A stretch of DNA of 63,210 nt, counting the filler, from Aduncisulcus paluster (Eukaryota): NCBI GenBank assembly GCA_024181965.1. It is 4 parts of 4 records of this genome, joined end to end, with 100 filler letters (N's around TTAATTAATTAA, not from the genome) between each part and the next. Parts side by side here need not be neighbours in the genome. Positions count along the whole stretch, not along the records: positions 26,066 to 52,858 come from BQXS01010803.1; 3 more parts are not named here. One strand, written 5' to 3'. The notes under the pieces are model-generated. The model searched no databases and had not been told where the DNA came from. It was given only the letters and a program-made list of their open reading frames with translations. Below, piece by piece: positions 8,202 to 61,478 of this stretch. The position numbers and the translations under genes were made by a program. The first letter of the stretch is position 1. Every line of letters starts with the position of its first letter.

Positions 8202-8212
8202 ATGTTTACTTC

Positions 8213-16251: not shown

Positions 16252-17434
16252 AATATCACCTGATATTGCACAAAACAAAAACTTTATGTCTACTAAATCA
16301 TTAAAATATATTATAACAAAAAATAATTAAATTATTACCAAATTTATAAGCAAATATTATATCAATGGATTATTTACTCCATGAAAGCACATATCCTTTC
16401 AAATTCACCTAACTGGGGATATCACATCAAGTATCTTCATAAAACCATTTTATATAGTCAATAAGCATCCTTTTAATCCTTTAAGTGTCTCAAAAACCTG
16501 GATTTAAAAGAATGGTGGGTATTATTCTCGAAGGAAGTGCAGTGGAAAGTAGACTTTCATAGTGAGGGTAGTGACGTTAGGATTGATGATGGCACGAGGT
16601 ATTCTTCTTGGCTCGGGAGAAGTGGGATACAACAACAGTGAAAATGAAGGGAGAGGAGCAGAAGGAAATGGGGTCCAACGCTTTGCCAACAACTCGAGAA
16701 AGTGGGAATTGTTAAGTAGTGTTACATTCATAGCATATATAGTTACTAGTATTGGCCAATAAATAAGGGTTGACACTCGAATTCAGAAGATTAGTTCAGA
16801 TTCAATATGTTTATGTATAAGTTAAGGGGTTATTATTTCTCTTTTTCTTTCACCCTTTCATTTTTTTCTTTCCTTTCTTGTGGTTCAAGCCCATTATCAT
16901 CAAACATTCTGGGCAAAATCCACAAAAAGACTAATGCTGGAGAGGGAGTCTAATATTGGCCCCAGAAGTTGAAATCAAATTAAGTTTTATTTTGTTATAT
17001 TGTTAAATTAATTATTATAATAGAAGAATAATGGAGATAATTAAGAAATTAGCTTATTGCGTGTATTTGAGCTTACATGATAATAATTTTAAAATAATTT
17101 CATTTATATAGTATAATTAAATATAAAACAACTAATTATATTATTCTCACTATGAATTCTTGAACCCTTTGTTATCGTCACGATAATGACGGCTTTTGAC
17201 TGAATTTATCATTCAACTTTCTGGTAATCAATTTTAATTGTGAATTAAATTACATTTTTGGTATTTTTGGTAACTGTTATCCCGTATGTTGATCTTTTTC
17301 ACGATCCACTATTTATCTCGAAGGTTTCCCATTAATTTTCAAATATTACATTAATTTCCGCCTATAAATTATTCATTCATTAATCTTTGCCTACTTTAGT
17401 ATTTATTTTTTAATTCCCCCAATTTATTTAGCCA

Positions 17435-20400: not shown

Positions 20401-23400
20401 AAATGGAAACTCAACAATAGAAACTCTTATTCAGAATGGACGCTCCTCGGATTCACCAAACAAATATTCCAAATTGAAACTTATCCGAAAGATCATATTC
20501 GGGATATCCCATTGGGTTAAATTAGTCAGTTTAATCGTATCTGGACTTGAATCTCAAACAACAAAAGCTCAATCTGATCATCCAATTCCAATCCCTATTC
20601 TAGTCCAAAATATATGTTTATCTTTCTCAAAACATTTTCAATGGTGCGAATATATCGCCAATGAGTTTTCACTTTCTATATATAGGTATAACGATTGGAT
20701 TTCTGAGAAACAACGAAGACTTCAGAAGCATGATAGTCTTCATTCGGTTTCAGGTCGAAAAAAAATGATTCCAAATGAAAATGAAATCTTATCATCTATT
20801 TTTGGACATTGTGAGAACATTATTCACAACTATTTTTGGGACTATGTGAGAATATTCTCCCCAAAACTACGATATTGGATAAATTTGGGGTCTAAAATTG
20901 TTTCTACTTGTCATGATGGAATGTTGACCAGTGATTTGTTTTCAAAACATAGAGATCAACTTGTAGATGTTTTTGATGAGTTTTGTTCCTCAAAAATGGG
21001 TGAGAGAGAAGAAAATGATAAGCTAATAATAGATCATGCTATGGAACTGTTTCTTTGTTTAGAATGTCTCAGATTGTTTTGTTGTCATACTTCATCCCAC
21101 GTTCTAAAAATAGAAAACGAGAAAGATGAATTGACGCCAAAAGAAGGAATAGAGAAAAAGGAAGGAGAGGGAGAAGGAGAAGGAGAAGAGGAAGAGGAAG
21201 AGGAAGAGGAAGAGGAAGAGAGAGAAGAGAAAAGAGAAGGTGGTCAACAAAGTGAAGAAAGGAGCAAACATGATCGTTCTCAAGTTGTTATTTATCTGCC
21301 TATTGCTGACATGACCATTCTCTTTAACAAATTCTCGAAATATTTTCTTCCAATCTCAAAAGCTTTAAAAACATTATCTTCTTGCCCGAATGTGAAGGGA
21401 AAGAGCAGAGAAGGCGAAAAAGGAGAAGAAGAATATGCTCAAACAAAAAATGATTCCAAATGAAAATGAAATCTTATCATCTATTTTTGGACATTGTGAG
21501 AACATTATTCACAACTATTTTTGGGACTATGTGAGAATATTCTCCCCAAAACTACGATATTGGATAAATTTGGGGTCTAAAATTGTTTCTACTTGTCATG
21601 ATGGAATGTTGACCAGTGATTTGTTTTCAAAACATAGAGATCAACTTGTAGATGTTTTTGATGAGTTTTGTTCCTCAAAAATGGGTGAGAGAGAAGAAAA
21701 TGATAAGCTAATAATAGATCATGCTATGGAACTGTTTCTTTGTTTAGAATGTCTCAGATTGTTTTGTTGTCATACTTCATCCCACGTTCTAAAAATAGAA
21801 AACGAGAAAGATGAATTGACGCCAAAAGAAGGAATAGAGAAAAAGGAAGGAGAGGGAGAAGGAGAAGGAGAAGAGGAAGAGGAAGAGGAAGAGGAAGAGG
21901 AAGAGAGAGAAGAGAAAAGAGAAGGTGGTCAACAAAGTGAAGAAAGGAGCAAACATGATCGTTCTCAAGTTGTTATTTATCTGCCTATTGCTGACATGAC
22001 CATTCTCTTTAACAAATTCTCGAAATATTTTCTTCCAATCTCAAAAGCTTTAAAAACATTATCTTCTTGCCCGAATGTGAAGGGAAAGAGCAGAGAAGGC
22101 GAAAAAGGAGAAGAAGAATATGCTCAAACAAATTTAAGAATGATTCCAAATCATCAAATGCGAAAGGCTATCACTGAATGCATCTGTCAACTGTGTTCTA
22201 ATTATAGCCATGTTGTTTCTCATGAACCAGATCCCTGTTGGAGAGATGATGAACTTATCAGTAAGAATATTTTGCCTATTTTTAGAGATATTCTCAAGAA
22301 TAATAAGAAATCGTTACCTTCTTCCCCTCCATTTTCGTGCTCTTCTTTGACGATCTATCACATTATTAACACTTTAATTAACATTTCAACCTCTACGGAC
22401 TCCTCAAAATGTTCCCTGACAATGAAATTATCTATTTTTAGCTTCCTCAAACCGTATATCAAACCATTAATCACTCAATATCCTCAAAATATAGATCCAA
22501 TTATCCTAATTTTAGCCAATCTGACATCTGAGACCGGGAAGAAAAACAAACTTAAGATTTTGTCTGATATTATCGTCCACGCATGGCCCATTGTGAAGGA
22601 TTCATTAGTCGCTACAATATGGAAGAACTTTAGAAAGAATTCTTTTGATAACAATTCTCTCTCTTCTCAAGCTTCATCAACAAACCTTTGGAATAATTGT
22701 TGCAACAATGGAGAGTCTATTTTTAGATGTTCTTATTCAACACCTTTCTCACTTAATTCTAAAAATAGAATTGTTGATCATGACAACAATAGTTGGTACA
22801 TTGTCAATCCATTCAGGAATAGCCACCGTCATTCTCAATTCAGTATTATCTTACTATTGTCCAACTTTTGTAAGCACCACGAATATGCTCTTGAGGTGTT
22901 TAAGATTGTCAAGAAAATGTATTGGGAATGGTTCAATATAATTCGGTCAATGATGGTCAACTTTCTTCCCTCTCCTGTTCAAACGATTCAAGATCCTCCA
23001 TATTCAACTGAATCATCAGTTACAAGAGCTACAAGTGATATTGTCAAGACAAAACAGCATCATGAGTATGATTCTTATTCTGCTTACATCCAATACAATC
23101 TCGCTAAATATCAGCAATCGCAAGCTAGTGTATTCCTTGTTCGTTTGTTATCCATTCTTTCGGATATTTCTCTGATATCACACAAATTTACTTGCATCAG
23201 AACAGATATTGCAACTGTTTGGGCATATTCTCATGGTGCTAAAAATATCGATTTCCTGAGATACTCAAGAAACATAGTGGCTGTAAACTCTAGATTTCTC
23301 AAACTTGGAGCTTTGACTTCTCTTCTCAAATGTTATAAGAGTTTGACCCGTGTTGATAACCCACTCGATTCCAAAAGAATTTCTATAATATTCTCATCAA

Positions 23401-25965
23401 ATCGGGATTTATTTGGCTCTTTGTTATATTCTTCAATAGATAAACGGCATGTAGCCAAGAATTTGATTGTTTTTGTTTACATGACATTTGTATGTTTGAA
23501 TCTCATTGTAAAATACCCCGTTTTCTATGATTCCCGTGATGCCCATAAGGAAGATTGGAACGAAGAACCAGAAGAACCATTGAAATTTATATTTGCAAGT
23601 GACAATGTAATGCAAACCATCGTGAATGAATTCTTTTTACCAATGACACAGCTTAGACATCCATTTTATTCCGGGGTTGGGCCAGAAAATACATATTTGT
23701 TGGATAAACCTTATTTTTCTTTGTTTACTACCATTGCTGAACGAATGGATTCCAAAAGAAATGCGTTCTTTCTTCTATTTCAACCAACTTTGAGGAAAGT
23801 TTTGAAAGATGTATGCAAAACAAAAGGAAAACTCCAGAAAATCTATATTTCTTCTTCTTATTCTTCCTCTTCTTCTTCTTCCTTAATTGAGGATTATCGG
23901 ACTGGGAAAAGGATACAAAAAGCTTCAAAATTTGGAGTTAAGAATCAATTTGTTGATCTTCTATTTGAGAATACTTCTCTCGGAGCTCTTAGAACTTTGA
24001 GAGCTTTGTCGACTCCACCCATAAATGAGAGGATAAAGTTTGAGATTCTCACTTTAATTGATCCATTTTATGAGAATTGGCTTGAAATATTTCATTCTGA
24101 TCCAAGATATACCCTTGAATGGATTCGTTTGATTCTGAATGTTATCAGTATTTCCAAGACAAGAAGAAGTGAAGCCAGCCATCAAAAAAATGGGAGTAAC
24201 TATCAGGCTTTACAAGGAGTTGATGTGTCAAGAAATAGTTTTCCTTCAAATGATAACGATATTATCCAGAATAGTCACCTTTCTTCTTCTTCATTAATAG
24301 ATAAGCCCAATGATGATAAGAATGGTGATTCAAATGTACATACCCTGAATTTTGTCCTTTGCAAGACTCACAATGATAATAACGATTCCGATATTATCTT
24401 ATTCAGATCAATGGTTCCGGTTTCTATTTTTAGAAATTATTGCCAATTGGCGAAGATATTGCCAACAATTAATGAGTTTTTGGCCGAATATAATGGAAAG
24501 TCTGACAGTGGCAGTATTAAGAGTCAGAAAATGGTGAAAACTACTCCAAAGAATATTTTGGTAGCCAAGGGAAAAGAAGAATCTAAATCAAAACCGATAA
24601 TACATAAACCAAAAGATCCAGAATTAGTCTTAGGGAAGTATTTTGATAGGGTGAAATCAGAATCATGGAAATTCTTTCATGTCTTGCTCCCACTCATCCA
24701 AAAATACAGACAGTTCAACGATTATCGATCATCTTCTAAAAATAGATCAAATATAAATTCCTCTTCTTCTTTCTCAAAATCTATGTTTAGCGATTCCTCT
24801 TCCTCTTCCTCTTGTACCATTTTCAATGAACAATATCATCGATTAATGCTCTTTTTTGCCCAATTGGTTGAGGATTATCCTGAAGAATTTTTAAAGAATG
24901 ATATATTTCATCTAATTGAAGATTTATTGGAGGATTGGTTGGAAGAAATCAATCGTGAGAAAGTATTTGAAGAGGAAAGTTGGAAAGACGTGCAAGAAAA
25001 GATGGTACATATGTTAGACATGTCAGGAACCAATTCTCATGAAATTAGAGAAATGAAACAACAAATTCCAGCTTCTTCTTCTTCCTCTTCCTCCTCTTCT
25101 TCCTCTTCTTCCTCCTCTTCGAATTCTATGAGAACTTGGTGTCACTTTTTGGCTGTTTTATCCACTGTTCCTGATCTTGTCCCTCAAATATCCCCCAAAT
25201 ATGATAATATCATGGAATATTGTAGAACTAGGATCCAAACTCAAGAAGATAATGTTACATTTGATGATTATGTTGAGTACATGGGAAATTGTCATCCGGA
25301 ATCTATCAAAAAGTGGAAGATTATGAATGTTTTGAAAGCTGAATTCCTTGAACCTGATAATATAACATCAATAAGTGAACATTGGGGAGTTAATGAAAAG
25401 AAAAAGGAAGAGGAAGAAGAAGAGAAAGAAAAGAAGAAACAAAAATATGGTATTTATTCAATTATAAGGTTTTTAAATGGCGATAAGATATTTTCTCCGA
25501 TTTCTTCCAGTCTTAAAGTCATATTCTATTCGATTTCTAAGCTTGTGAATGTTTTCAGTAATGTAAAAGATGAAATTTATGATTTATTTAGTTCCCTTGA
25601 CAGCGATTATATTGAAATAACATTAAGAAAACAAGAAAAAGAAGAAGAAAAAGAAGAGGAGGAAGAAGAAGAGGAAGAGGAAGAGGAAGAGGAAGAGGAA
25701 GAAAGAAAAGAGAGAGAGGAAGAAAAGCAAACGAGTGAAAATTCTACTACTTCCAAGAATAATTCGAATAATATTTGGAATATCCAGCAAAAAGTAATTC
25801 TCTCAGCCATTTTGATTGATAAACTTTGTACATCTTTTTCAGTCATTTTGTTGAAATCCTTAGATGTTGTGAATTACATTGATCAAAGAACAAAGAAAGA
25901 ATCACAAAACTTGGGAATAGAAGAAAAGATCATCAAATGCGAAAGGCTATCACTGAATGCATCTG
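17435..25965 (+). CDS. Giant helical (ARM/HEAT-like) repeat protein of a lineage-specific family; interrupted by a 685-bp duplication, 3' end lost at the gap
   Basis: ORFs 17435-21463 and 21435-25965 become one frame if one 685-bp copy is removed. Shares W..L.S..S.vP.LVP.ISPKYD..M.wC and the N-terminal block with 52959-61137. Confidence 0.75.
17909..17962 (+). repeat. 18-nt coding tandem repeat x3 (H[VA]EQGE)
   Basis: catg(t/c)tgaacaaggagaa x3. Confidence 0.9.
20760..22132 (+). repeat. Tandem duplication, unit 685 bp, frame-breaking
   Basis: ATGATTCCAAATGAAAATG at 20765 and 21450; both copies end gctcaaac (21444, 22129); the translations are identical. Confidence 0.93.
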
Positions 25966-26065
25966 NNNNNNNNNNNNNNNNNNNNNNNNNNNNNNNNNNN
26001 NNNNNNNNNTTAATTAATTAANNNNNNNNNNNNNNNNNNNNNNNNNNNNNNNNNNNNNNNNNNNN
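25966..26065. other. Artificial 100-nt gap spacer
   Basis: N44-TTAATTAATTAA-N44. Confidence 0.97.
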
Positions 26066-32581: not shown

Positions 32582-32923
32582 CTATCAGCCAAAACACTAT
32601 TGTATTCTCTAGTTCTTTGTCCAAGTATAAAATCACACAAAAAGAGCTTTATTCAGGAGTTACGTATAACATAAAAATGCGGAGTCCTATTAAATAATTA
32701 GAATCATGGAAATTCCAAGTTCTAGAATCATTTTGTTGTCATAAGAGAATGGCTTATATTTTGTTGGGGGAAAACCTAATTATATTAGTTAAGTTCAGCT
32801 TAGATTATAAAAATGCATCCATATTAAAAATAAAAAATCGAATCAATATTGATTTGATTGGCACGTTTTTTCTCCCTCGTTTCTGAAGGTATGGGACGAA
32901 TGAATCACTGTGCCAAAGGACCA

Positions 32924-35900
32924 ATGCCTTCAAAGTTTATTGAAAGCATCCACTTTTGCAAAAAAAAGTTTCACTTGTTCCGGTGGGATTTTTTCCTTTT
33001 GTGTATTCTATACTCTATTTCTGTGGTGCCTTGCCTGAAAAAATTTGTTAAAGCATACAATGATGTTCAAACCATGGATGAGCTTAACGTACCTATGGAT
33101 GATTTGGAGCCTGAAGAGATTGAAGTTCTTGATGAGATGAGAGGTGAAGTCTACAAATCATTTTATCTTTCTCTTTTGTATCTGTTCATTCCTGTCATTA
33201 TTCATATCGTTATTATCCTTCTTAGATTTTGGTCAAACAGATATTCCGCAAAGACTGGTTGGACTCTTTCTACTTCAAAAAGAGCAAGCCATGTCATAAT
33301 ATATCCTAAAAAGGATTGTGGTAGCCCAGCTATTTGTAAAATTAAGGAGTCCCCTCGCCATAGTAGGTATATTGAGTATCAAGCGGGGAAATATCTTTTG
33401 AATTCTGATGATTCCTTTGTATCTCTTCCATATCCTGTCACAATCTCATATTCTGAAGTTAAGGAGGTTTGTGTAAATGGAGGTCTGTCCAAAGAAGATG
33501 TTGAATCTAAACAAGATCTCTTTGGAATGAACGAAGTTGATATTAGTGTTCCTAAGTTTGGAGAAGTAATTAAAGAGCATTTTATGGCTCCTTTCTTTGT
33601 TTTCCAGATCTTTACCTCTGTTTTATGGTTATTGGATGATGCTAAGTTGTTCTCCTTGTTCTCCTTGTTTATGCAGTTGGTAATGGAATGTGTGAGTGCT
33701 TTCCAGTCTCTGCAGAATCGTAAAGATATTGTCAACATGGCTCCAAGGACATCCCTTGTTTACTGTCTCCGTGATGGTAGATGGGCCAAAATCAAGAGTT
33801 CTCTCCTTGTTCCTGGTGATATCATCAGCTTGGCCCCCGTTGAGGGCCATAAAGAGAAAGAGACCAAGGGAAGAAGAAGAGCGTAAGTTAGCTATGGCTG
33901 AAGCTGAGAAGAAGCGTGCATCTGAAGAGAAGCTCTCTAAACTCATGAGCACTATCACCATGCTCTTCCCTCCTCTTGCTAGTTCTTTGAACTCTAACCC
34001 AACCTCCTCTGTTTCTCATTCTATTCCTGTTCTTTCCTCAATCGTTCCTTGCGATTGTGTCTGTATCAATGGGAGCTGTGTCGTCAATGAGAGTATGTTA
34101 ACTGGTGAAGCTACTCCTCAGGTCAAAGCCAGTATCTCTGTTGTTGACGGAGAGAAGGGAAAGGGAGAGGAAGAAGAAGAGGGAGGAATTGAGATTGATA
34201 AACAGAAAGGAATCTGTCTGTTCGCCGGTACAACTCTCCTCCAGACAACTCACTCAAACAAACCTATTCCCACTCCAAACAAGGGTTGTTTGTGTGTCTG
34301 TGTGAGAAGTGGTGGTGGAACTAGTCAAGGATCTCTATTCAGAATGATTGCTTTCGATACCGAGAAAGCCACTGTGAATACCACAGAGTCTCTTGTATTC
34401 ATGGTATCTCTCTTGATTGTGGCTACTATCGCTGCTTACCATGTCATTGTCCGTGGTCTTGAACATAAGGTTGCCACAGTTCCTCGTCTTGTTCTGGATG
34501 CTGTTCTCATTGTTGTTAGTGTTGTTCCTCCTGAATTGCCTACTGTTCTTTCTCTGTCCATCAACAATGCCCTCAGAAGTCTGAAGAAGGCATTTGTTTT
34601 CTGCACACAACCTTTCCGTATCCCCATGGCTGGTTCTCTCTCGGTCGCTTGCTTTGATAAGACAGGAACGTTGACTGAAGATAAAGTTATTGTCACCAGT
34701 GTGTGGTGTAGCGATGATGATACTTATGCCAAATCGACATCTGACAAGAAGACCCCCAAGAAAACTGATAAGAAGAAGAAGATCAAGATGTCTTCTTCCT
34801 CCCCAGAGTGTTCTTCTCCTTCGGATTCGTCCAAACCTCTCTACTTCTCCCATGAACCAGCTCGTATCAATGCCGAGTGTATGGATGTCATTGGTGGATG
34901 TCACAGTGTTGTCGTTGTCGAGGAAGAGGACTCTGTGTCTGGCAAGATCAAGAAAGTCCCATCGGGAGATAGTCTTGAAGTTGTTTCTCTCAAGTCAACT
35001 GGCTTCTCTCTCACAGCTAGCAGTACAGTTAGCAAGACTATTTGTGTCTGGGGTGTTAAGAACAAGGATATCATGAGACGTATCAACATTATGAAACGGT
35101 TCCCATTCTCCTCTGCACTGAAGAGGATGAGCTGTGTCATTGGTGTCACAAAGGGACGTGGTGGCGTGGAACAGAAGAAGATCGTTGTCAAGGGTGCCCC
35201 TGATGTCATTTCTCCTCTTCTTGCCTCTGTGCCGGCCTCTTATGAAACACAATACAAGAAACTCACGAAACAAGGCTTCCGTGTTCTCACTCTTGCTTGG
35301 AAACCCCTTGACTCCTCAGTGAATGCCTCTGGCATTAGTCGGAAAGATGCTGAGTCCGATCTCATTTTCTGTGGATTCCTTGTCATCACGTCCCCAATCA
35401 AACCTCAGAGTCGAGGAACTATCACAAACCTTCAAAATAGTGGCCATCGGTGTATGATGATCACTGGAGACGCTCTCTTGNNNNNNNNNNNNNNNNNNNN
35501 GTGTCACAAAGGGACGTGGTGGCGTGGAACAGAAGAAGATCGTTGTCAAGGGTGCCCCTGATGTCATTTCTCCTCTTCTTGCCTCTGTGCCGGCCTCTTA
35601 TGAAACACAATACAAGAAACTCACGAAACAAGGCTTCCGTGTTCTCACTCTTGCTTGGAAACCCCTTGACTCCTCAGTGAATGCCTCTGGAATTAGTCGG
35701 AAAGATGCTGAGTCCGATCTCATTTTCTGTGGATTCCTTGTCATCACGTCCCCAATCAAACCTCAGAGTCGAGGAACTATCACAAACCTTCAAAATAGTG
35801 GCCATCGGTGTATGATGATCACTGGAGACGCTCTCTTGACGAGTATCAGCGTTGCCAAGGATGTCAATATGGTTGGAAAAGATCAAAAACTGTGGAAAAT

Positions 35901-37299
35901 TGTCGGTGAATGTAAGAAGGAAGAATCTGAAGAGCTTCCTTCATTCGTTGAGCTTCTTGATGAAGAGACTGGTGAGACAAAGAAGAGCTCTGATCCTCTG
36001 GCCGATGGTCTGGTGTGTATCAGCGAGGGAAAAGCTCTACAACCTTTCCTCCTCCCTGCTCGGTTATACTCCCCATTGACTTTGTCTTTGGTCTCATGTC
36101 TCTCTATCGCTTCCAGAGCTACCCCGGACGATAAGGCCGCCATTGTCCGTGCTTTGAGACGTTGTGGAGAAGGTGTTTTCTGTTGTGGAGATGGCACAAA
36201 CGATGTTGGTGCTCTCAAGAATGCAGATGTCGGTATTGCGTTGTTTGAAAGCGCTGACTATCGTCTCCAAAAGAAGCTTGAAAATGCCAAGAAGAGGTAC
36301 CGTGCTCAACAACTTAATCCACAAGCCATGTACAGGAAAGCTGGTGAACTTGCCAAGCAACGCAAGACTTCCCTTGACTTTGAGTTGAAGACTTTGTATC
36401 AGCAACACAAGAAAGCCATCTACAAGGAATGTGGTATTGCCTGTCCTGATGATCTCCCTATGAACCCAAGGAGTGAGTTCTCTGCTCTTCTGGAAGAAGA
36501 GGAAGAAGGTATGCTTGTGAAGGTCGGAGATGCTTCAATTGCTGCTCCATTCACTGCCAAAAGTGGTCGTATCGAGGATGCTTTGAAGGTTGTCCGTCAA
36601 GGAAGATGCACATTGGTAAGTACTATCCAGATGTACAAGGTTCTTGCACTCACATCCGTATCCTCTGCCTATTCTTTGTCTGTTCTGTTCCTTGATGGTG
36701 TTCGTAGCCATGAATACCAACTTATTGTGAGTTCTCTCGCCTCAACTGCTCTGTTCTATGCCGTCTCTGATGCTAAACCCCTGGATACTCTCGCTTCCAC
36801 TCCTCCTCCCCACTCTGTGCTGAACTTGGGTGTTGTCTTCAGTATAATCGGTCAGGCCATCATGGAGATGGTTGTGCTGATATTCAGTGGTCATTTGTGT
36901 AAAGAATACTCTGGAGTAACTGTCCGCAAGACTGTTCCTTTCAAACACGAATTTGAAGAGTCACTCACAAATACTGTTTTGTTTATTGTCCAATTTTGCC
37001 TCGATGTCGCATGCATTACTGTCAATTATCAAGGAAAGCCACACACTCAGAGCATTTTCCAGAATAAGAAATTACTTTTCAGTGTTGTTGGAAGCGTTGG
37101 AGCTGTATTCGTTTTGGCTAGTCAGATGTTCCCTGAAATCAACACTATGCTCAAGCTTAAGGCCATGTCAAACGATCTTAGATGGAAGGTCCTTGGACTT
37201 TGTATAGCTCACTTTGTTATATGTTGGGTTTGGGATCGTCTTTGTCTTTTCCTGTTTAGAGGAAGATCTGTTCAAAGAAAAAGAGAAAAATCTGAATAA
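32924..37299 (+). CDS. ATP13A1: P5A-type ATPase (Spf1/ATP13A1); +1 frame break near 33868 and a gap-associated duplication
   Basis: PFFVFQIF, NESMLTGE, VVPPELP (P5 signature), CFDKTGTLT, KGAPD, MITGD, GDGTNDVGALK, GDASIAAPFT, RQGRCTLV. Start is ATG 32891 or 32924. Confidence 0.93.
35143..35838 (+). repeat. 338-bp direct repeat flanking a 20-N gap (35481-35500); unmerged contig overlap
   Basis: 35143-35480 equals 35501-35838 apart from C35333/A35691. Confidence 0.92.
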
Positions 37300-37664
37300 T
37301 TCAAATTCTTTCAATAAATATTGCCGATTTTAAACATTAATATTCATTTATCTTTCTTAATCAAGAAATTAAAATTTTCAAAACTATATCTCGAAATATA
37401 AGCCATATGAATAGGTTTTAATGGAATATTTTTATTACTTGGATATTTTTCTTGGTCTATTTGGCATTATCATCCCATGGATATTCAAGGATTTCGGAAT
37501 AGTTCTTCCATTTTGTATCTCGATGGAAATGGATATTATACAAAAATAAAATCGAATTGACAAATTAAAAGCCTCTATACTCTCTAAATTTTGCAACTAT
37601 AAAGTTGAAAAATATAAGAAATTTTCTCTGCATAATTTCGGGCTATTTGACTCAGAAATCAACA

Positions 37665-38465
37665 ATGTCCAGCCCCTCTATCAGATATAGAACCGATGAA
37701 TCCATGAAGGATACTATTGCTTCATCCCCATCTCGTATGAGACTTCATGCTTTATCCACAAAACTCTCTTCTCTTCAAAGTGGTTTAGAGGAGGAAAAAA
37801 TGCAGCGTAGAGATGCAATTGAGACCAAACTTAAAGTTCTTGACGAGAAATTATCTCGTTCTCAATTATCTGAGGCTGCAAAGCTGAAATTGTTGAAAGA
37901 TCAAATCGGAAAACTTCAAGAAGCGCTTGCCACTGAACGTGTGTCGAGAGAAATCCTTGATGAACGTAAGAAGAAGGAGCTTGGTCTTGTTGAATCTTCA
38001 ATTACTCTTGATTTGAATGTCGAAAGGCAACAACGTAAAGATGGTGAGGCTAAGTTGATGAAGAGCATTGAAGAGCGTGTATTTGCTGTCAGACTTGAGC
38101 TTGTTAAGGAGAAAAAGGCTAGAGAGGAAGCTGAAGAAAGACAGACCCGTGAAGTTAGCGAAGAAGTGGGTCGTATTGCTGATGCTCTTGAACAAGAGAG
38201 AAGAACCAGGAAAGAAAAGTATAGCGCTCTCGTCCGCAAACTTCAAGATGAAATTTCCAAGTTACAAGAGGTTGTCGGTCAGGAGAAAAAGATTAGAGAA
38301 GAAAGTGAGACTACTTTGTTTAGAATGTTAGAGGATGTGTCAGCAAACATTCAAGTTGAAATTGACAAGGAAAAAGAAGATAGAGAAGGCACAGAAGAGA
38401 CCATTTTGAAGCTTCTTGAAGAGACTGTTGTTGGTGTCGAACATGGTCTTGAATCAAACCCTTAA
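37665..38465 (+). CDS. SF-assemblin/beta-giardin family striated-fibre protein
   Basis: 266 aa: short Ser/Pro head, then coiled coil LEEEKMQRR...E..ERxxRE ending EDREGTEETILKLLEETV. Confidence 0.8.
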   Translation: MSSPSIRYRTDESMKDTIASSPSRMRLHALSTKLSSLQSGLEEEKMQRRDAIETKLKVLDEKLSRSQLSEAAKLKLLKDQIGKLQEALATERVSREILDERKKKELGLVESSITLDLNVERQQRKDGEAKLMKSIEERVFAVRLELVKEKKAREEAEERQTREVSEEVGRIADALEQERRTRKEKYSALVRKLQDEISKLQEVVGQEKKIREESETTLFRMLEDVSANIQVEIDKEKEDREGTEETILKLLEETVVGVEHGLESNP

Positions 38466-38597
38466 TGTAATTCTGTACACTAATAAAATCTCAGAGATGT
38501 TATTATTATTGATTTTGTTTGTGCTTTTGTATCCTATTTACTCATTGTATCTGAAAAAACAGAAACAAAATTGATTTCCCTTTTTTCTCGGCAGACA

Positions 38598-41500
38598 ATG
38601 TATTTAATTCCAGATAAAGGATCAAAAAAGAAGAAAAGGATCCAGAGCTTTAGAGATCTGCAAAAGTACTTCTCCGCTGCCGACAAGGAAGAAAAATTTC
38701 AAATGTCAATAGATTTATTGCCACCAAGCCATACATCAATAATATGGGGAATGATTGATTCTTGCGATGAAGTAAGATTGTTATGTACAAAAGTAATCAC
38801 TGATTTTGTTGTTATTTTGTGTGAGCTTGAGTCTGAGAAAGATGACTCTCTCAAAAAGCTAAATGAAGCTACCCCTTTTATTTTAACCCAAATTACTCAA
38901 CGTTTTTCGGCTGATAAGGCTCCAAGAAACTTTGGAAGTTCAGACCACTTAGCATTAGCCACCTCTCTTGGTTTCAAGGATTCTACGCCTGTTCCTTCTG
39001 TTCATAATCCATTAGAACGTTCGGATGAGGTAAAAGAAGCTATTATATATCTGCTAACAATTATTGTTGATTGTTTAACACCCTCATGTCTTTCTATTTT
39101 TTCAGACGAGATTAGTAATATCTTGATCTGTGGCACTCTCGATGAATGCCCAAAAATTAAACAAAAATCAATTGAACTTGTTAGAATTTGGTCAGATAAA
39201 CTGCCAGAAGATGCTGGATTGCGGTCCGAGAGGCTTATAGGTGCTCTTCTGATTGGTGGGATCAATAAGGGAAAACTCCGGATTAGATGTCTTGCAATTC
39301 AAGCTGCTGTTTCAGTTGTGAGTGGAAGAGGTAAGAATGAGACTGTTACACGTCACTTGGTAGAAAGGCTCATCGTTCTTAATCGTGATCCGAAAATTGG
39401 AGTCAGACTCTGTTTGGCTGAACAAATTGGGACATTGCTGACAAAACACGTTGATAGACATACTTTAGGACCTGTATTCACTTCATGTTTGTTGTCCTTA
39501 CTCTCTGATCCCTCTGAAGAGGTTGCTCGTGTTGCATTGAATTCACTTGAACAAGGAGGTGAACAATTACTTCAAGACGATAAGAAACGGTACAAACAAC
39601 TCATTAATTTCCAAGATTCTCTGTCGGCACCCATTACTCCCTATAAACAGGCCTACCTCCCTTTCTGCAGCCATCCAATTGTTACAAGACCCTCTTTAGG
39701 ATCCAGATTGCTCGTTAAGAATTGTTTATCGAGAATAATTGGTGTGGTTGTCACGGAGCTCACTGATCCTATCCTTTCCGTTCGTATTCGGGCACTTCGT
39801 CTTCTTGGACACATCATTGCTCATTCCGAACGTGAAATTGCCCGTTATTCCTCATCAATTATTGAAGGTCTTTCTGGAGCCTTTGAAGGTGTAGACTTTC
39901 AAGGAATTAGTCAAAACAGCCGTTTCTCTACTTCTTCTTCTGTTCCAAGTTCCTCTGGATCTGGCAGTGAGACATCTATGGCTGGAGCAAGATACATACG
40001 TGATGGTGGTAAGTTATTTACTTCCGTCGATTCAATGGTTAACTCTGCTACTGGATCGGGATCTTTGCAATCCTCCACCACCCCATCTCGTCCTCACGTT
40101 GAACTTTCTCGCTACGGTCTTGATAAGTACCATCGTGAACGTCAGATGAAGTTAGAAGAAGAGAAAAGAATGCTTCGTCTCTCTTCATCTCCGTGTGCCC
40201 CCTGTGTTGGAGTCTGTGGTGGGGTCATTAACGATGACGATCAGCGAGTCGGGAAAGAAGAGAAAGAGCTTATGTTTGAAATGAGAAAGACCAGTGCTCT
40301 TCTGTTCCTCTCGTTGCCCCTGTCCATTTCTCTAAACCACCTTTCCCACCTCTCTTGTGGAAGGTCATGTATGGCTAGCTCTGTTTCAGTCAGTGAGGAG
40401 AGGAAAGGATGTGCGTTCTTTATGCTTTCTGTGCTATACGATGTGTGGGCCTGTGTGTATGAATGTGGAGGGAAAAGGAGAGATTCTGCCAAGGAGGAAG
40501 ATGGAGGGAAATTGGAAGATGATGAGGATAAAAAGGAGAAAGGAGAGAAGAAGGGAAGAAGAAGAAAAGGAGAAAACTGGAGATTCTACTGTACATGAAG
40601 AAATTGCCTTCTGGGCCAGTTGTGTGTATGACTTATTAGGAATGCAAATCCGACTCCATCTTAAGCGTGAAGTTAAGATCCACGAAGATTTCAAATCTTT
40701 ATCTTCGTTCGTGTCAACCCTATCCACAGTTGACAAGACTCGAACATTCTTTGCTGAATTTGTTCTCTCCGCAGTTGGACTCCTCAAGGTTGTCCAAGAA
40801 ATGGAGGTGAAAAAACAAAGGGAGATTCTTGAAGAAGAGAAGAGGGAGAAAGAGAAAAGGGAGCATAGAGCAATGGTTGATAAACGAGAGGCTGAGAGGG
40901 GAAGTTCTTCTTCCACGGTTAAAGTATCGCCATCTCAACTGGACAATTCTTCCTCTTCCTCCTCTTCTTCCATTCGCCAATTCCCATCTCCCCTCTCACC
41001 AACTCAATCTATTGGCAAACTTCTAACGTTGTTATGTCTTCTTCTTGCTGCCCCTCTTTCGCTTTCCTCTGCTTCTTTCTCTGCTCTGTGTGGACTCGAT
41101 GGTTTGTGTAATATTGGAGTAACTCTTCTGGAAGAGGACTCATCCTCTGTTTTGACTCATATCTTCCCTCTTGTGAGTCATACACTGATCAAACATAGCA
41201 AGGATGAGTGGACACAGATTGAGTCTCCTTCCTTGTCTGCCCTGTGCATTCTTCTCCTCGGATATTCTCCTGTACAATTCCACACTTTTATCGGGAAAGA
41301 CATGTCTGTGCGTCCATATATCTATTCAGAAGCCCTGAAATGTCAGAGACGTCACTCCACCGGACTCTTGCAACCAGCAGTTGCTCGCATCTTTACTTGT
41401 GATTCCCTCTCTACGAAACCATATTTGAATGCTATGAAAGGTATTCTAAAGTCTATAATGAATGGAATGAAGATTGGATGTGATCAAGGTGTCAGAGCTA

Positions 41501-42862
41501 AATTATCATCTTTGCTCCTCAAGGTCATTCAATTCTCATGTGAATGTATTAATCTCGAGGCGTGTGTGCGTGTTAACTCGGCTTCCTTGCCCATATTGCG
41601 TGTGCTTATGAATGGTATTCCTCCCTTGTGTGCTTGGAGGGCTGGTAAGCTCTGTGGACGTGTTCGAAGCAATCTTTTGGATACAATATATGTGTGTTTC
41701 GGTGTTCAACGTCTGTGGGATGAACATGAAAAGGATGATAGGAGTGAATATATACCCGTTGATATTGGATATTGTTCCGATGTTATTGGGGTTTTACGAG
41801 GAGGAATGGATGATGAGGAAGATAAGGTTAGAACCAGTGTTATTCGTCTTAGTGGGCAAATATTCTCCATGTTCAATGGCGTGAACATGAAACATTTGGT
41901 GGAACTTCAGAAACAGCAAGATCAATTGGAGCTTCCTAAAATGGATACTTCTCATGAAGAAAAAGATGAAGAAGAAGTTGATGTAATTGAAGAGAAAGAC
42001 GAGGATGAAGATGTTATTGATTTCCGCAAGTCTATTTCTCCCTCTGCTTTCTCCTCATTGTTGTCTTCACTCTTCTTGGGTGTATCAAATCGTCTTGCTG
42101 ATAGTACCTCTTCAAATGCTTCTCTCGCTGCTAATGTTCTTTGTTCTTTCCCTCTTCTTCTTGCGTGTCCAAGTGATTTGTGTTCTGTTAGTTCCATTTT
42201 ATCACTCCACATTGACGATGAAAGGGAATCCGTTCGTTTGGCATGTCGTGACACTCTTGTATCTTTCATTACATTGCTTGGGCATCCCTTGAATAGCGTT
42301 GATTATGAGAGCATTCTCACACATCTTCCTCACGGATGTGTTCCAACATGCATGCTTCTTGATGATTATTGGATTCCGCAAGTCTATTTCTCCCTCTGCT
42401 TTCTCCTCATTGTTGTCTTCACTCTTCTTGGGTGTATCAAATCGTCTTGCTGATAGTACCTCTTCAAATGCTTCTCTCGCTGCTAATGTTCTTTGTTCTT
42501 TCCCTCTTCTTCTTGCGTGTCCAAGTGATTTGTGTTCTGTTAGTTCCATTTTATCACTCCACATTGACGATGAAAGGGAATCCGTTCGTTTGGCATGTCG
42601 TGACACTCTTGTATCTTTCATTACATTGCTTGGGCATCCCTTGAATAGCGTTGATTATGAGAGCATTCTCACACATCTTCCTCACGGATGTGTTCCAACA
42701 TGCATGCTTCTTGATGATTATTGGATTCCTGTTATGGATGCCAAGAGGAAAGAATTGTTTGCTGAATGTATCAAAGAGTATGAAAAACGAAAGGTCAAGG
42801 CAAGAAACACAAAGGCTATTGAGACAATTGATGCTGTTATTGCTCGTTATTCCTCGAAATAG
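38598..42862 (+). CDS. DNAAF5: Dynein axonemal assembly factor 5 (HEATR2); +1 frame break near 40553 and a 352-bp duplication
   Basis: HEAT repeats. ERSDEVK, RPSLGSRLLVKNCLSRII...ELTD...VRIRALRLL and WRAGKLCGRVR match recalled DNAAF5 motifs, which lie on both sides of the frame break. Confidence 0.8.
42022..42729 (+). repeat. Tandem duplication, unit 352 bp, frame-breaking
   Basis: ttccgcaagtctatttc at 42022 and 42374; both copies end ggattcc. Confidence 0.93.
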
Positions 42863-43342: not shown

Positions 43343-45346
43343 TTACAATTTCTTCGAATCGCTCTCTTCTCCCACACTTGGTTCATCGATCAATGGATCC
43401 TCTTCCTGATTCGCACAGGCACATCCAGTCATGCCCTGAAGAGCACCAAATACAACGCCAACAAATTCTGACATGTGCATGAACGATGATTCAAGGTAGT
43501 TTAGTTCCTCAGGAAGGGTAGATATTTGTTCTTTATGGACCTCAGAGGGATTGAGAGTACCTCCAGATGGAACAAAGGACTCCACAACTTCCTCATCGGC
43601 ATCAAATAGTTGCATTCCTTCGTTGACAACACATTGAAGGTAACAATTCGTGTTGAGGGTTACACTCGAACTTGAGGAGCTTTCGACTTCTTCGTCGTAA
43701 TAGGAATAAGATATCTCATCATCAAGAGAGAAGGCACTCTGTTTGGATTCTAATGATTCTTTTTTATCTCCTTCTTCTTTCTCTTCCTCACTGATATCAT
43801 CTTTCGCATGAAAGGCATCCCAATGTTCATCAATAGTCTGATCTGAGGGTTGGACATCCTGAGATTCACTTTTTCCAGCGTCTCTAGCCTCTTCTTTGCT
43901 ATATTTGGATATTGAATCAGAAGTCGTCGCGGTGGGGTCTGTTTTTGAACGGCTTGCTTCCTCAACAGTGCTCATATCGCCAGTAAACTTCACTTTGCTT
44001 CATGGATNNNNNNNNNNNNNNNNNNNNTCTCCTTCTTCTTTCTCTTCCTCACTGATATCATCTTTCGCATGAAAGGCATCCCAATGTTCATCAATAGTCT
44101 GATCTGAGGGTTGGACATCCTGAGATTCACTTTTTCCAGCGTCTCTAGCCTCTTCTTTGCTATATTTGGATATTGAATCAGAAGTCGTCGCGGTGGGGTC
44201 TGTTTTTGAACGGCTTGATTCCTCAACAGTGCTCATATCGCCAGTAAACTTCACTTTGCTTCCTTCTAAAATACTCTGGACAGATAATGGGTATGCTTTG
44301 GATCCTCTCTTCCTTTTTCTATGCATTCTGTGTTTCGTCAAAAGATCGGATGATGGATGAGTTGAAATGCCCTCAGAAGTCCGTTTGGCTGCTTCAAACT
44401 TGATTGTATCATGGGGAGGAACAATAAAACAATTCTGATTCTTTTTCTTGTATGGAAAGAATTCAATGAGATAAGTATGGATCTTAAGACCGGCATCATG
44501 AAGGATATTTTGGGCCGAATTCATGGAGTGGAAACATATTGTACCTGTGCTCCAGGCCATATGAGCGTTGTGCCAACTCCAAGATTTTATCATTCCATAT
44601 TTATGCTCAAGCAACATGCGGATTCTAAATGAGGTAACAACGCCCGAGGAGGATTGTAGATCGGTCCTATTCACATGAATTGCACGATCATCATCAGTTG
44701 GAATCTGTGAAGTCGGAGGAATGCGAGAAATAACCAGGAAGAGGGAGCGAATTGTTTGAGTCTCTGAGGGATCTTTAGAGGGTAATTTTGGAAGGTTGGT
44801 ATAGACAAAAAAACAATCAAGCATGGAAAATAACAAGGAATACCAATTGATAGTGAATTGTATTCGAATTCTAACCTTTGGTTTTCGCCCAGATTTGTGT
44901 TCAGTTGATACAATTGTAAAATTATCTTTTCCAATGGAATCAGAAAGAATTTGTTTGACATAATCGATTATACTACCGATATATACAGCACTTCTCTCAA
45001 ATAAATTACACTCTTTTGATTCGGGATATGGAGCAACACTTAAAATCATATTATATTTGGGTGTTTTAAAATGTTGCAAGAATTGATCCCTTGAATAAAA
45101 CAACATGAACTGAGTATCATCACATGGCAATTTTTCAACGTATTCTTTCATTGATAGATCAGATGTTCCAATAATATGATTCTCAAGTTTTTCAATGTTC
45201 ACAATGGATGGATTACTAGAAATAATAACCGTTTTATCCGACAATAATGCATCTGTTTTGCGAATGGAAGTGATCCATCCTTGTGGGGAATTGAAAATGG
45301 TAATTATATATTCAAAGGCTAAAACTTGTTCTTTACGTAAATTCAT
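43343..45346 (-). CDS. Hypothetical protein with possible degenerate RRM and acidic C-terminus; split by a 20-N gap
   Basis: ORFs 44000-45346 and 43343-43993 overlap through the duplicated flank. LFLVISRIP...IRMLLEHKYGMI...TGTICFHSMNSAQNIL is RRM-like; HRKRKR is a possible NLS. Confidence 0.6.
43767..44262 (+). repeat. 235-bp direct repeat flanking a 20-N gap (44008-44027)
   Basis: 43767-44001 equals 44028-44262 apart from C43957/A44218. Confidence 0.92.
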
Positions 45347-52858: not shown

Positions 52859-52958
52859 NNNNNNNNNNNNNNNNNNNNNNNNNNNNNNNNNNNNNNNNNN
52901 NNTTAATTAATTAANNNNNNNNNNNNNNNNNNNNNNNNNNNNNNNNNNNNNNNNNNNN
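52859..52958. other. Artificial 100-nt gap spacer
   Basis: N44-TTAATTAATTAA-N44. Confidence 0.97.
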
Positions 52959-55900
52959 AAACAGCATATTTCATAAAATCAGGATACAAACCTCCATTAT
53001 CCTTACACCATGACATGTTATCATCGTATTTAGGAGATAAATGAGGAACAAGAGATGGAATTGAGGAAAAGATAGAAATCAAAGTTGACCAAAATCTCAT
53101 TCCCCGATTATGTTTCTCCTTCTTAAAGGCATTAAACCAACCATCAAGAAGATATTTAATGTTTTCATACACTTCACGAGCATGTAAGAAATTACAACAC
53201 AAATTGGAAAAGAAATCTAAAACATGAAAACATGTTCCTTTCAAAATTCCATCTCCAACGCATTCTTTCTTCACAATGGCGAGAATTGGGAAGAAGAATG
53301 GCCATATTTCAGAACATATGGTTTGATTTGGTGATTTTTCTCCCGATAACTGGGTGAGTTTTGCCAATATGATAATCCATTTTTCAAAATACTCAACATC
53401 TCGATATATTCTCAACCAAGCTTCAAGATATGGTTTGATGAGGGCGAAAATGGATGATCGAGTGGAGGAGGATCCTGAAATGGATATATTTTTGAGTGCA
53501 ATCAAAACATATTTTGGGATATTCCCTTCCAACTCCCTCTTACTTCCTCTTTCAAGAAGACGTTGAAGAGCAGGAGAGATTCGAGGAAAGAAGGAATCGA
53601 GTTCATTAACTTTAAATGAAAAATAGACACAAATACAACAATATTCATCATCAACATCTTCCTTTAATATTGTTGAAACTTTAGATAAATAATCAATAAA
53701 CGTGTAAATAAGGTCAGTAAAATCAGGAATGGGAAGATAGATGGATGGGTCGGAAATTACATGTTTCGCAAATAAAGCTAAACATTTACAACAAAGAACT
53801 ATTTCTTTTTTGTTTTCTCTAATTTTCCGCCTGGATTGATACTTACGGAAAACAGAGACAATATATTTTTTATGTTCGTGGTATAATTTAGAGGTGGATT
53901 CTGAATACGGGGTATTTTTAATGGAAGAAATTAAATTTTCTAATTTCTTTAAGTGGGGATAAAAACAATTCATAATATATTTTGAATAATCATCACTCCT
54001 ACCACCATTCTCCTTACACCATTCCATTTTGGAAGTGAATTTGGAAATCAAACAATCTATAAGAGATGGGTTGCTGGAGAGCATGGAAATGAGTTCTGAC
54101 CAATATTGGATTCCTCGATCATCATTCTTCCTCTTTATAACTTCAAACCATTCATCAAGAAGATCTTCAATGTTATTATATATTTCACGGACATGTGATG
54201 GATCACTGCACAAATTAGAGAAGAATTTTAAGACACGGATATATTTTTGCTCAATAATCTTATCCCCAACAATGGATCTTTTTACAACATCAAGAATTGG
54301 GTGGAAGAATAACCATGATTCGGAACAAATGATTTTGTTTGGAGAATCATCTTCTAATGACCAAGTCAGATCTGATAATATACTTATCCACTCTTCATAA
54401 TAGATAATTTTCTGATATAATTTCAACCAGTCTCTGATATAGGGTTTGATAAGGGTGAAAATAGATGATAGAGTGGAAGAAGATTGGGATATGGAAAGAT
54501 TTTTAAGAGTCATCAAGAACCTCTTTGGGAGATCTCCCTGTAACTTCTCCTTACAACCTCTCTCTAAAATACGTTGGAGAGTTGGAACAATCTTAGGAAG
54601 GAATAAACCAAGTTCATCAACTTGAAAAGTATAAGCAATACAAATATTACAATACTTTTCGTCAATAGATGATTCCAATACTTCCTCAACATGCGATAAA
54701 TGAACAATGAAAGTATCGATCATATCATTTAAATCAGAAATCGGAAGATATATTTCATTTCCAGAACTCATATGCATCACAATCAAGTCTAAACACTCAC
54801 AACATGATACAAACTCTGTCTTATGTTCTTCAATTTCACTCTTGGATTGATAAGCAAGGAAAACTGAAAGGAGTAATTCTCGATTTTCTTGGTAGAGTTT
54901 TGAAATTGAATCTGAGTCTCGTGATTTTAGGATGAGACGAAGCAATTTTCCCATAGATTTTGGATAATGATCACAATTTTTCCGATATTTTGTGTAATTA
55001 TCATTGACCTTTTCATTATCCTTACACCATTCCATAGCGGCATCAAATTTAGGTGATATACGAGGCACAAGAGATGGAACAGTGGAAAAAATAGAAATCA
55101 ATTCTACCCAATATTTAATTCCCCATTTGTGTGTCTTATCCTTTATCACTTCAAACCAACCCTCAAGAAGATGATTAATGTTATTAAATGCCTCAATCGT
55201 ATGAGAGAGATCACAGCACAAATTGGAGAAGAGTCTTATTATTAACACATTAGATCCCATTAACATAGTTTCTTTAATATAATATTTCTTGACCATGTTA
55301 AAAATTGGTTCTGAAAATGCCCATATCTCAGAGCAAATAGTTTTGTTCGGTGATTTATCTTCCGCTAACCAAGAAATATTTGTCAATATAACAAACCAAC
55401 TTTCATAGTACTGGCTATCATGATATACTGTCAACCAATCTTTGAAATACGGTTTTAGCAAAGAGAAAATAGATGAGCGGGTTGAATACACCTCAGAACT
55501 TGAGATATTTCGCAGAGAAATCAATAAACACTTTGCAGATTCTCCTTCTAATTTCTGCTTGCATCCTCTTTCAAGGATGCGTTGAAATGTTGGTGCGATT
55601 TTGGGAAGGAAGGAATCATTCTTATCCATACTATACTGATTTATAAATGTATTGAAAACACAAATTGTACAATACTCTTCATCAACATCAATTTCTAAAA
55701 CTTCCTCAACTCTTGACATATGCTCAAGAAAGGTATCAATAAGATCATGAAGACACGAAATAGAAAGAAATACTTTTAATCCAGAGATTTTATGTCTAAC
55801 AAACCACATTAAACACTTACAACATAACACAAGTTCTGAGTTATGTTCTTTAATATCACTCCTGGATTGATATGAATGAAAGAGAGAGAGAATGTATTCT

Positions 55901-58900
55901 CGATATTCGTGGTACAATACAGATATTGACTCTGAATCAGGGCATTTCTTAATGAGGCTGATCAATTCCTCCAATTTTTGAACGTGAGGGTGACAATTGT
56001 TATGATACTTTGAATAATCTGATCTCAGGCCTCCATTATCCTTGCACCATATCATTTCCTCATTATATTTAGGATATAAATGGGGAACAAGAGATGGAAC
56101 AGTGGATAACATGGAGATCAAGTTCGACCAGAATTTGATTCCCCAATTGTATTTCTTCTTCTTGACCGATTCAAACCAACCATCGAGAAAATCACTAATC
56201 TTGGCATACATAAATATTGCATGCGATGGATCACAGCAAAAATTAGCAAAGAGTATAGTCGAATAACACAAAAATGTTTGGCTTTGGCAAGAGTTTTCCC
56301 ACCAAACTCCCTCTTTATGATATTTAGAATTATGTGAAAGAATGGCCAAATGTCGGAACAAATTGTGTCGATTGGTGTTTTTGATTCTTGAGAAAAAGAA
56401 ATTCTTGACAACATTATAATCCATTCTTCACAATATTCAATATCTTGATATTGTCGAAACCAATCTCCAATATGTGGTTTAATAAGCGAAAATATTGAAA
56501 GCAAAGTCGAGGAAGAATTTGAACTGGAGAAATTTTTAAGTGAAGATAATAAATGAAAAGGAATATCACCATTCAATGGCTCCCTCCGTCCTCTTTCAAG
56601 AATATTTTGGAAAGTAGGTTTCACCTTGAGAAACAATGAATCCAAAATCATAATAATCTTGGGAAGATCGTTTTCATATTCATCTCTCACCTTGAACAAA
56701 TAATCAACACAAATTGCACAATATTCTTCATCAACATCTCTTTCTAGAACTTCCTCAACTCTTGATAAATGAGTGATGAAAGTATCAATGAGATCATTAA
56801 GGTCAGAAATGGGGAGAAATATTTTTGTTCCGGAAATGGAATGTTTTACAAACCATCTTAAACACTGACAACACAATATGATCTCCTTTCTATGATATTC
56901 AATTTCACCTCTGGATTGATCTGAAAGAAACAAGGAAAGAATTGACTCTCGTTGTTCGCGATACATTTTAGAAGTCGATTCTGAATCCGAGCATTTCTTG
57001 ATCAAATCTATCAAATCCATCCATTGTTTTTGAATGAACAAATTATCATCAATCATTTTTGAAATTTGACCATTTTGGTGATATCTTGTATAATAACTCC
57101 TCAAAGCCCCATTATCTTTACACCATGCCATAGCACTATCATATTTTGGAGATATTTGAAACACAAGAGATGGAACGGTTGAAAGAATTGAAATGAAGTT
57201 AGACCAATATCTAATCCCCCATTTATGCTTTTTCTTCCTAAAAGCTTCAAACCAACCTTCAAGAAGATGATTAATATTATTATGCACTTCAATGGCATGC
57301 GAGGGATCACAGCAAAAGTTGGCAAAGAGCAGTAAAACAAACCGATAATCACCTTCAAGGATTGCCCTCCCAATAATTTTTCCCTTTATAATTTCAACAA
57401 TTGGATGAAATAATGGCCAAAGTTCAGAACAAATGGGTTCGACGGGAGCATGAAGTTCTGGTGACCAAGTAAGTTTCGACAAGATAATTATCAAAACTTC
57501 ATTAATATTATCTCCATATATTCTCATCCAATCCTTTATATATGGTTTGATGAGGGTGAAGATGGATGATCGAGTGGAAGATTTGGAATTGGAAATATTG
57601 CTGAGAGTATGTAACATATACAAAGGAACATCTCCATCAATCTTTTTCTTACTTCCTCTTTCAAGAATACCTTGGAAAGTTGGAGCTATTTTGGAAAGGA
57701 CAGAATCATATTTATCTTTAATCTTTGATGTATAACTGAGACAAATAACACAATACTCTTCATCGACAGCTCCTTGCAAAACTTCCTCAACGGTTGAAAA
57801 ATATCCAATAAAAGTTTCAAATATATCAATAAGATCAGAAATAGGAAGATAAATATTTCCTAGTTGGAAATTTCCAACAGATTTTGGATCATGGAAATTA
57901 GAAAAACGGAAAAGAGTATTATTCTTGGAAAATTTATGAGTTATCAACCACATTAAACTATTAAAACATATAGAAATATCCATAATATTTTCTTCGATCT
58001 TATTTTTGGATTGGGATGCAAGAAATACAGAGAGAATAGCATTTCTATGTTGGTGGTAAAGTCTCGAAGTTTCCATGATATCAATTTTGGAGTCTGAATC
58101 AATCGCATTCTTGATGGTATCAATTAATCTGCCGAGATCAATATCATCAATTTCGGGATTTGGATCAATTAGAGGGGATAATTGTGAAGAAGATGATGGG
58201 GAAATGAGAGAAACTCTTTTTGGGGGTTGAGCAAGACTCTGACAGTTCTTTTCAAATTGAATGAATGATTCTTTCCACCCACCATTTTCTTTGCACCATC
58301 TCATATCTTCATCATATCTAGGTGACAACTTAGGAACAAGAGATGGAACTAAGGATAACGTGGAGATTAACATTGCCCAGTATTTGATCACCCAAATGGC
58401 TTTCTTTCGTTTAACAAAAGTGATAATATCATCAAGATAATCTTTAATACTTTGATATACTTGGATGGCATGATCTTGATTAATACAACACAGATTTGAG
58501 AAAAAGAAAAGAACAGTTGGATAATCTTTAATCTTTTCTTCATTATATTGATTTTTGAAAATATCGAGAATAAAATCAAATAAACTCCATGTTTTTTCAC
58601 ATAAAAATTGATTTGGTCGCTTAATATCTCCCTCCAAAGTGAGATTAGCCAGAATTTTAATCCATAACTCAAACAGATTTGGATAATTCTCCAACCAATC
58701 TCGAATAAATGGCTTTATCTGATCTAAAATGAAGGATTTTGTGGGAATAGATTTAGATAAAGTTGCTAAATTTATGAAAATTTCAAGAATATCAATTGCA
58801 ATACTCATATCCATCTTTTCTTTTCTTCCTCTTTCAAAAATAGAATGAAAAAATGGATAAAGCTTCATAATAAAATAATTTATCTTTGAATTACTTGCTT

Positions 58901-61137: not shown

Positions 61138-61478
61138 TGAGATATTATAATTTAGGGTTACAAGTTAAAATAGGAAGATAATTCAGATAAAGTTAATTAA
61201 TATATTTTTAAAAACGAATAAAAATCGCAAAAAATATATTTAAGCAAAATTTACATAGATCAAAATCCAGAAATATCAAGAAAAATAATGAGGTGACATC
61301 GAGACTTGAACTTTTGGAAGCTCATTTTTTTCAACTTCAAAAATTCTCGGAATCGTGTCTTGAAATAGTCAAATATGTTATAAAACGTGATAAAATGTGA
61401 TAAAACAATCAATTATAAAATAATTTATTTGAACTTTTATGAAAAACATAAAATCACTGATTCTGTACACTGGCAGAA

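Follow-up and report, generated by a model that had tools for sequence, protein, structure and literature searches.

The DNAAF5 gene of Aduncisulcus paluster is interrupted in the draft genome by a frame break at a short GAA tract, and we consider it likely that the break arose during assembly and that the gene itself is intact, expressed and ∼1,304 codons long. At this position the true sequence is probably AAG and then an uninterrupted series of GAA codons, which would make the gene one ORF with long lineage-specific inserts. Both the frame break itself and a motif that recurs at another frame break are truly present in the deposited sequence. The window, by which we mean the whole stretch of 63,210 nt that was analysed, is composed of four separate contigs (1-10806, 10907-25965, 26066-52858 and 52959-63210). 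They are connected by spacers of the form N44-TTAATTAATTAA-N44 at positions 10807-10906, 25966-26065 and 52859-52958. As these spacers are artificial joins, ORFs that seem to cross them are not real neighbours.

The break lies at the 15-mer AAGGGAAGAAGAAGA on the plus strand (40551-40565), where GGG (40553-40555) runs into a GAA tract (40555-40566). In the upstream frame positions 40551-40598 read AAG GGA AGA AGA AGA AAA GGA GAA AAC TGG AGA TTC TAC TGT ACA TGA. The TGA that ends this frame (40596-40598, plus strand) follows 31 nt beyond the 15-mer. An earlier note on this DNA had described the codons AAG GGA AGA AGA AGA AAA from 40551 and an upstream stop at 40598, about 30 nt past the motif, and had read EEEEKEKTGDS in the +1 frame from the motif onwards; the sequence is as it described. 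Its statement that the two ORFs overlap from 40357 needs to be corrected in one respect. The ORFs do overlap, by 263 nt, and the +1 frame is open from 40336 to 42453; position 40357 is its first GTG. A codon-usage log-odds profile, trained on the other ORFs of the window, places the crossover between the two frames at ∼40555. The crossover is sharp at the motif, which is also where the earlier note had put the frame switch.

The 5' part of the gene begins on the plus strand with the ATG at 38598 and ends with the Lys codon that precedes the break (38598-40553). For the upstream ORF (ORF1, 38487-40598) we observed a match to Pfam TPR_DNAAF5 with an E value of 1.9e-20 (73.7 bits, cut-off 27) and a match to HEAT_DAAF5 with an E value of 7.7e-11 (42.5 bits, cut-off 31.9). 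The latter spans only positions 6-73 of the 194 profile positions, and a low-complexity insert comes after it. When 1.84 billion representative proteins were scanned with the upstream DNAAF5 protein, 108 matches with E ≤ 0.001 were obtained, including the protein itself. From these matches 20 orthologues were chosen for full length (814-881 aa) and aligned, and the resulting DNAAF5 profile has 847 columns. Using hhalign, residues 46-468 of ORF1 were aligned to profile columns 25-389 (E 1.6e-28), and residues 362-515 of the ORF in the +1 frame (ORF2) were aligned to columns 578-713 (E 1.1e-5, probability 82%). The ORF2 match contains the W..G......R block that is invariant in the orthologues (W651, G654 and R661 in their alignment) and reads WRAGKLCGR here. 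The WRAG that the earlier note had assigned to the +1 frame is thus present, as residues 434-437 of ORF2 (41635-41646, plus strand). A Pfam search of ORF2 returned nothing meaningful even at an E value of 10.

Neither ORF alone covers the whole DNAAF5 profile, and judging by the alignments the two are collinear halves of one DNAAF5; the Pfam matches of ORF1 and the profile alignments of both halves bear out the name that the earlier note had given to the gene. Profile columns 390-577 had no match in ORF1 or ORF2, and hence the break falls inside a lineage-specific K/E/D-rich insert that is absent from the orthologues. The alignment to orthologues, proposed in the earlier note as a way to bound the shift, was carried out; with the break inside this insert it gave no narrowing beyond the overlap of the two ORFs. 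In the public record the 5' part is annotated alone, as a protein of 666 aa that ends at 40595, and an identical protein is found in the representative library. The +1-frame part is annotated from the M at 40633 as hypothetical protein ADUPG1_007745, which is 98% identical to ORF2 and was the sole match when proteins of near ORF2 length were searched. With ORF2 as the query we detected no protein bridging the break among longer proteins (1235-3525 aa), a weak result since the collection seems to be without proteins from the two public runs described below (X1 and X2). With ORF2 residues 40-200 we found none among shorter proteins (30-386 aa) of a collection that again seems to be without X1 or X2 proteins. 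Upstream, DNAAF5 is adjoined by an SF-assemblin/beta-giardin gene (37569-38465, Pfam E 9.6e-8).

The continuation of DNAAF5 in the +1 frame (40555-42373, plus strand) ends with the first copy of an exact tandem duplication of 2 x 352 nt (42022-42725, plus strand). Positions 42022-42377 are repeated from 42374, and 332 common 25-mers occur at a distance of 352. As 352 is of the form 3n+1, the duplication shifts the frame of DNAAF5 a second time. The annotated ADUPG1_007745 protein reads through the duplication and repeats a peptide. With one copy removed, ORF2 is in frame with the ORF 42293-42862, which supplies the C-terminal end and the stop (42726-42862, plus strand). Counting from the ATG at 38598 to the last codon, with two nt added at the motif and one copy of the duplication, we arrive by arithmetic at 3,912 nt and thus 1,304 codons.

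The draft was assembled with MaSuRCA 3.3.3 from Illumina reads only, and 69.9 Gbp of reads yielded an assembly of 29.4 Mb with an N50 of 4.6 kb and a BUSCO value of 40.4% (PMC9933649). The RNA-seq data were obtained from the same culture as the genome, and a transcriptome assembly was released with the draft (PMC9933649). Across the 63-kb window we detected four exact tandem duplications (685, 352, 358 and 261 nt); two of them flank gaps of 20 Ns and one (352 nt) lies inside DNAAF5. The 358-nt duplication (35143-35838) has exact copies on both sides of the gap at 35481-35500, and the same holds for the 261-nt duplication (43767-44262) and the gap at 44008-44027. Both look like false gaps that duplicate a part of a P-type ATPase gene and a part of a minus-strand gene, respectively. 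The 685-nt duplication (20760-22132, with 20760-21447 repeated from 21445) gives rise to an apparent pair of ORFs (17432-21463 and 21396-26021) for a very large protein without a Pfam match. On the minus strand we observed two further frame changes (56118-56427 and 60595-60656) in a very large frame (52903-61164), again without a Pfam match. The change at 56118-56427 looks like a -1 or +2 type near ATATTTATGTATGCC, and the GGGAAGAAG motif is absent from both places. No Pfam match was obtained for the ORF 42293-42862 or for large ORFs on the other contigs.

The same 15-mer AAGGGAAGAAGAAGA occurs at 33866-33880 on the plus strand, at the break between the ORFs 32858-33886 and 33696-35561 of the P-type ATPase gene; the earlier note was right that the motif is common to a second frame break. 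The codon-usage crossover at this twin site is found at ∼33865, and the downstream ATPase ORF matches Pfam E1-E2_ATPase with an E value of 1.4e-15. The 12-mer AAGGGAAGAAGA has two exact copies in the window, both at codon-usage crossovers. Allowing for at most one mismatch we counted six matches compared to 1.0 expected, and six were reached in none of 100 shuffles. Other GAA/TTC tracts of four units (15221, 23870, 24281 and 25073) sit within single long ORFs, and hence tract length alone is no explanation of the error. The P-type cation ATPase (E1-E2_ATPase, Cation_ATPase and Cation_ATPase_C) is spread over three ORFs (32858-37299); its gene is broken twice, at the twin 15-mer (33866) and at the duplicated gap (35481).

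We used a script to count the stops that remain if two nt are added or one nt is removed at the motif. For the ATPase (32858-35480) there were no stops in 875 and 874 codons, respectively, compared to 40 in the window form. For DNAAF5 (38598-42373) there were none in 1,259 and 1,258 codons, compared to 55 in the window form.

Two public runs of one sample, X1 and X2, both kept as contigs, were compared with the window over positions 32800-41900 (9,101 nt). X1 is a DNA-like run, possibly the source of the assembly, and contains 0.98 of the sampled words. X2 contains 0.95 of them. None of the runs listed is recorded as RNA, and the RNA label of X2 is a guess supported by uneven depth. Over this region X1 provided four short spurious pieces only and no usable cover at either motif. 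The results for X2 rest on the 8 contigs listed of 611 records, where contigs in the window form would give no entry. Among the contigs listed, the X2 depth was 127.2 over the intergenic positions 37268-37690, 2813-4993 in the ATPase and SF-assemblin genes, and 668.5, 864.5 and 529 along DNAAF5. With depth low between genes and high within genes, X2 looks RNA-like. As both halves of DNAAF5 are similarly covered at this RNA-like depth, a dead gene is unlikely, and the judgement of the earlier note that true pseudogenisation is improbable holds up. The SF-assemblin gene shows a depth of 3360-4993 and thus several times that of DNAAF5 (529-864.5), and one X2 contig (38341-40305) spans the 3' end of the SF-assemblin gene and continues into DNAAF5. 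A poly-Ser run of TCT/TCC codons in DNAAF5 (40945-40974) was skipped as a repeat in the comparison, and the reads seem to be cut there.

Over the 9,101 nt there were no substituted letters between the window and the X2 contigs listed. The sole indel listed is AA inserted behind 33869, carried by three contigs with a depth of 2852.4 of 5484.1. Two further X2 contigs stop at 33869 with loose ends AAGAAGAAGA that equal the same longer form, and presumably these two contigs make up the remaining depth (5484.1 minus 2852.4). At the twin site X2 reads AAG GAA GAA GAA GAA GAG, which is in frame and two bases longer than the window. With a depth of 2852.4 the longer form comes close to the flanking contig (2813), which leaves at most a minor share for the shorter form. 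Of the X2 contigs at the twin site, those on the left extend 10 letters beyond 33869. For the break in DNAAF5 no bridging contig was found among the X2 contigs listed. The alignment of contig 11 of X2 (237 nt) covers 40555-40789, beginning at the third G, and leaves two letters at the left end unmatched. The letter beside 40555 in this contig is not a G, since a G would have aligned, and the insertion at the corresponding position of the twin site is likewise two letters long. From the twin site together with this contig end we infer that the DNAAF5 site carries the same difference of two bases. Reads that lack the third G, which the earlier note had named as evidence against its claim, are nearly what was found: at the twin site the X2 contigs have GGAAG compared to GGG in the window, and at the DNAAF5 site a contig ceases to follow the window at the third G.

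An assembly artefact should be visible as a disagreement with read-derived contigs, and these contradict the assembly at 33869 and partly at 40555, where a contig ends with a mismatch. We attribute the error tentatively to a consensus step and would expect the DNA reads to carry the in-frame form as well. The proposed mechanism assumes two forms: L is the longer in-frame form seen in X2, and S would be a form with one GAA unit fewer. The window form equals L minus AA and also S plus one G. Suppose that L is stacked with two S rows, with a 3-base gap at columns 4-6 in one row and at columns 5-7 in the other; at the left end of the tract neither placement of the gap would be better than the other. 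When we computed the column-majority consensus of these three rows with a script, it was exactly the window form at both sites. An identical context would produce an identical error at both sites, which would account for the 15-mer arising twice. The contigs that end 10 letters beyond 33869 suggest the existence of the S form, as they end at the point where L and S diverge, and this fits the L/S consensus model. Super-read assemblers give a minor length variant as much weight as the main form, and such a weighting of minor variants fits the model too. A literature search on consensus indel errors of MaSuRCA found, at the level of search results, no documentation of such consensus behaviour. 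Two errors at one identical 15-mer would be a coincidence, and a biological signal would account for it too.

The biological signal that the earlier note had in mind was one read by the ribosome. In this case the mRNA would carry the frame break and a programmed +1 shift would take place at AAG-GGA-AGA. The identical 15-mer at two frame breaks, in genes that are expected to be needed, the similar RNA-like X2 depth of the two DNAAF5 halves and a 0-frame stop within 31 nt are all features that such a shift would show. However, at the twin site the frame is intact in the X2 contigs and a ribosomal shift is therefore unneeded there, and at the DNAAF5 site the X2 contig leaves the window sequence at the third G. 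We also counted 9,115 codons of the window ORFs, taken up to or beyond the two breaks, and found that Gly is most often encoded by GGA (189 of 423) and Arg by AGA (168 of 472), so there is no hungry codon at the site. The site is also without a stop codon, and from its sequence the Lys-tRNA on AAG would be unable to re-pair on AGG. Among the same 9,115 codons an in-frame AGA-AGA-AGA did not occur at all, as would be expected if RRR were EEE read out of frame. A literature search returned no paper with both Aduncisulcus and frameshift. The recoding signal is unsupported, and we regard frameshifting as hardly credible. The frame would also be restored by a short spliceosomal intron, 3n+1 bases long and located within 40336-40598, and 11,743 introns were predicted in this species (PMC9933649). 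No true joint was present among the X2 contigs listed over 32800-41900, where the sole joint entry, from 34186 to 36491, is spurious and due to low complexity; X2 depth is present across the ORF overlap and the codon-usage crossover is sharp at the motif. We consider the chance of an intron negligible, and the earlier note, which had seen none, is in agreement with the contigs. Two candidates were examined: GTATGA...AG at 40457-40600 has a length of 144 nt, a multiple of three, and is thus in the wrong phase, and GTCATG...TAG with 15 nt was rejected by eye for its length or phase.

The DNA could also truly read AAGGGAAGAAGAAGA, with two bases added in the RNA at the motif by insertional editing or polymerase stuttering and with an mRNA that is in frame. 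This would agree with a window derived from DNA reads and an in-frame form derived from an RNA-like run. Among the X2 contigs listed, both differences in 9.1 kb fall at the same 15-mer, and the depth of the longer form at the twin site nearly equals that of its flank (2852.4 compared to 2813), as full editing would give. We nevertheless judge this to be very unlikely. We know of no insertional editing of nuclear mRNA, and slippage on a 3-base repeat would not add two bases. In addition the assembly has many other artefacts, a simple consensus error reproduces the window form, and the RNA label of X2 is itself a guess. Less remote, and still unlikely in our view, is a real frameshift allele, be it a pseudogene, a split gene or, in a polyploid cell, the coexistence of a broken and an intact allele. 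The break is present in the deposited sequence, two separate proteins are annotated in the record, and the contigs break at the site, which indicates more than one version in the reads. On the other hand mutation is improbable as the source of an identical change at an identical 15-mer in two unrelated genes, neither ORF alone covers the DNAAF5 profile, and the cell bears flagella (PMC9933649). The in-frame form also reaches about the full flanking depth at the twin site, and for the same reason a model with two alleles in equal dosage was rejected.

If the break is an artefact as we favour, it holds nothing new biologically and its value is practical. The 666-aa protein and ADUPG1_007745 would be public gene models for two halves of one DNAAF5, and the upstream P-type ATPase is likewise split. 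Gene counts, protein lengths and gene losses taken from the A. paluster draft would be distorted by such breaks. It also calls for caution in general, as a motif that is common to several frame breaks in one assembly can reflect a deterministic consensus error and not necessarily a recoding signal. If the genomic reads had the window form, RNA-level repair or recoding in a protist would be indicated and the interest would be high. Were RNA insertion true, it would amount to site-specific insertional editing of nuclear mRNA, in essential genes, in a free-living relative of Giardia.

Several known systems can be compared with the break. Insertional RNA editing is found in Physarum mitochondria, and the paramyxovirus P gene is subject to stuttering. 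Extra RNA bases at defined sites would match these systems if the DNA has the window form; however, they are organellar or viral, whereas here the difference between DNA and RNA is hypothetical. The +1 sites of yeast Ty1, ABP140, EST3 and of antizyme need a P-site tRNA that re-pairs or a slow A-site codon (a rare AGG or a stop). They resemble the present case in the +1 direction, with a short heptamer-like signal as the model, and differ from it in that GGA and AGA are the commonest codons here and AAG is unable to re-pair in the +1 frame. Euplotes shows +1 frameshifting at AAA-TAA/TAG in many genes. What is alike is an apparent +1 shift in a protist that needs a common short motif, but here there is no stop at the site (it follows 31 nt on) and at the twin site the transcript-like contigs are without the break. 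Indel errors at short tandem repeats in short-read drafts differ from our case in that the identical 15-mer resulted at two sites here and that the consensus step is a proposed one. What is alike is that the break lies in a trinucleotide tract and splits a gene into adjacent ORFs, which are annotated as two genes, that read-derived contigs disagree with the assembly at the tract, and that exact tandem duplications and false gaps occur on the same contig.
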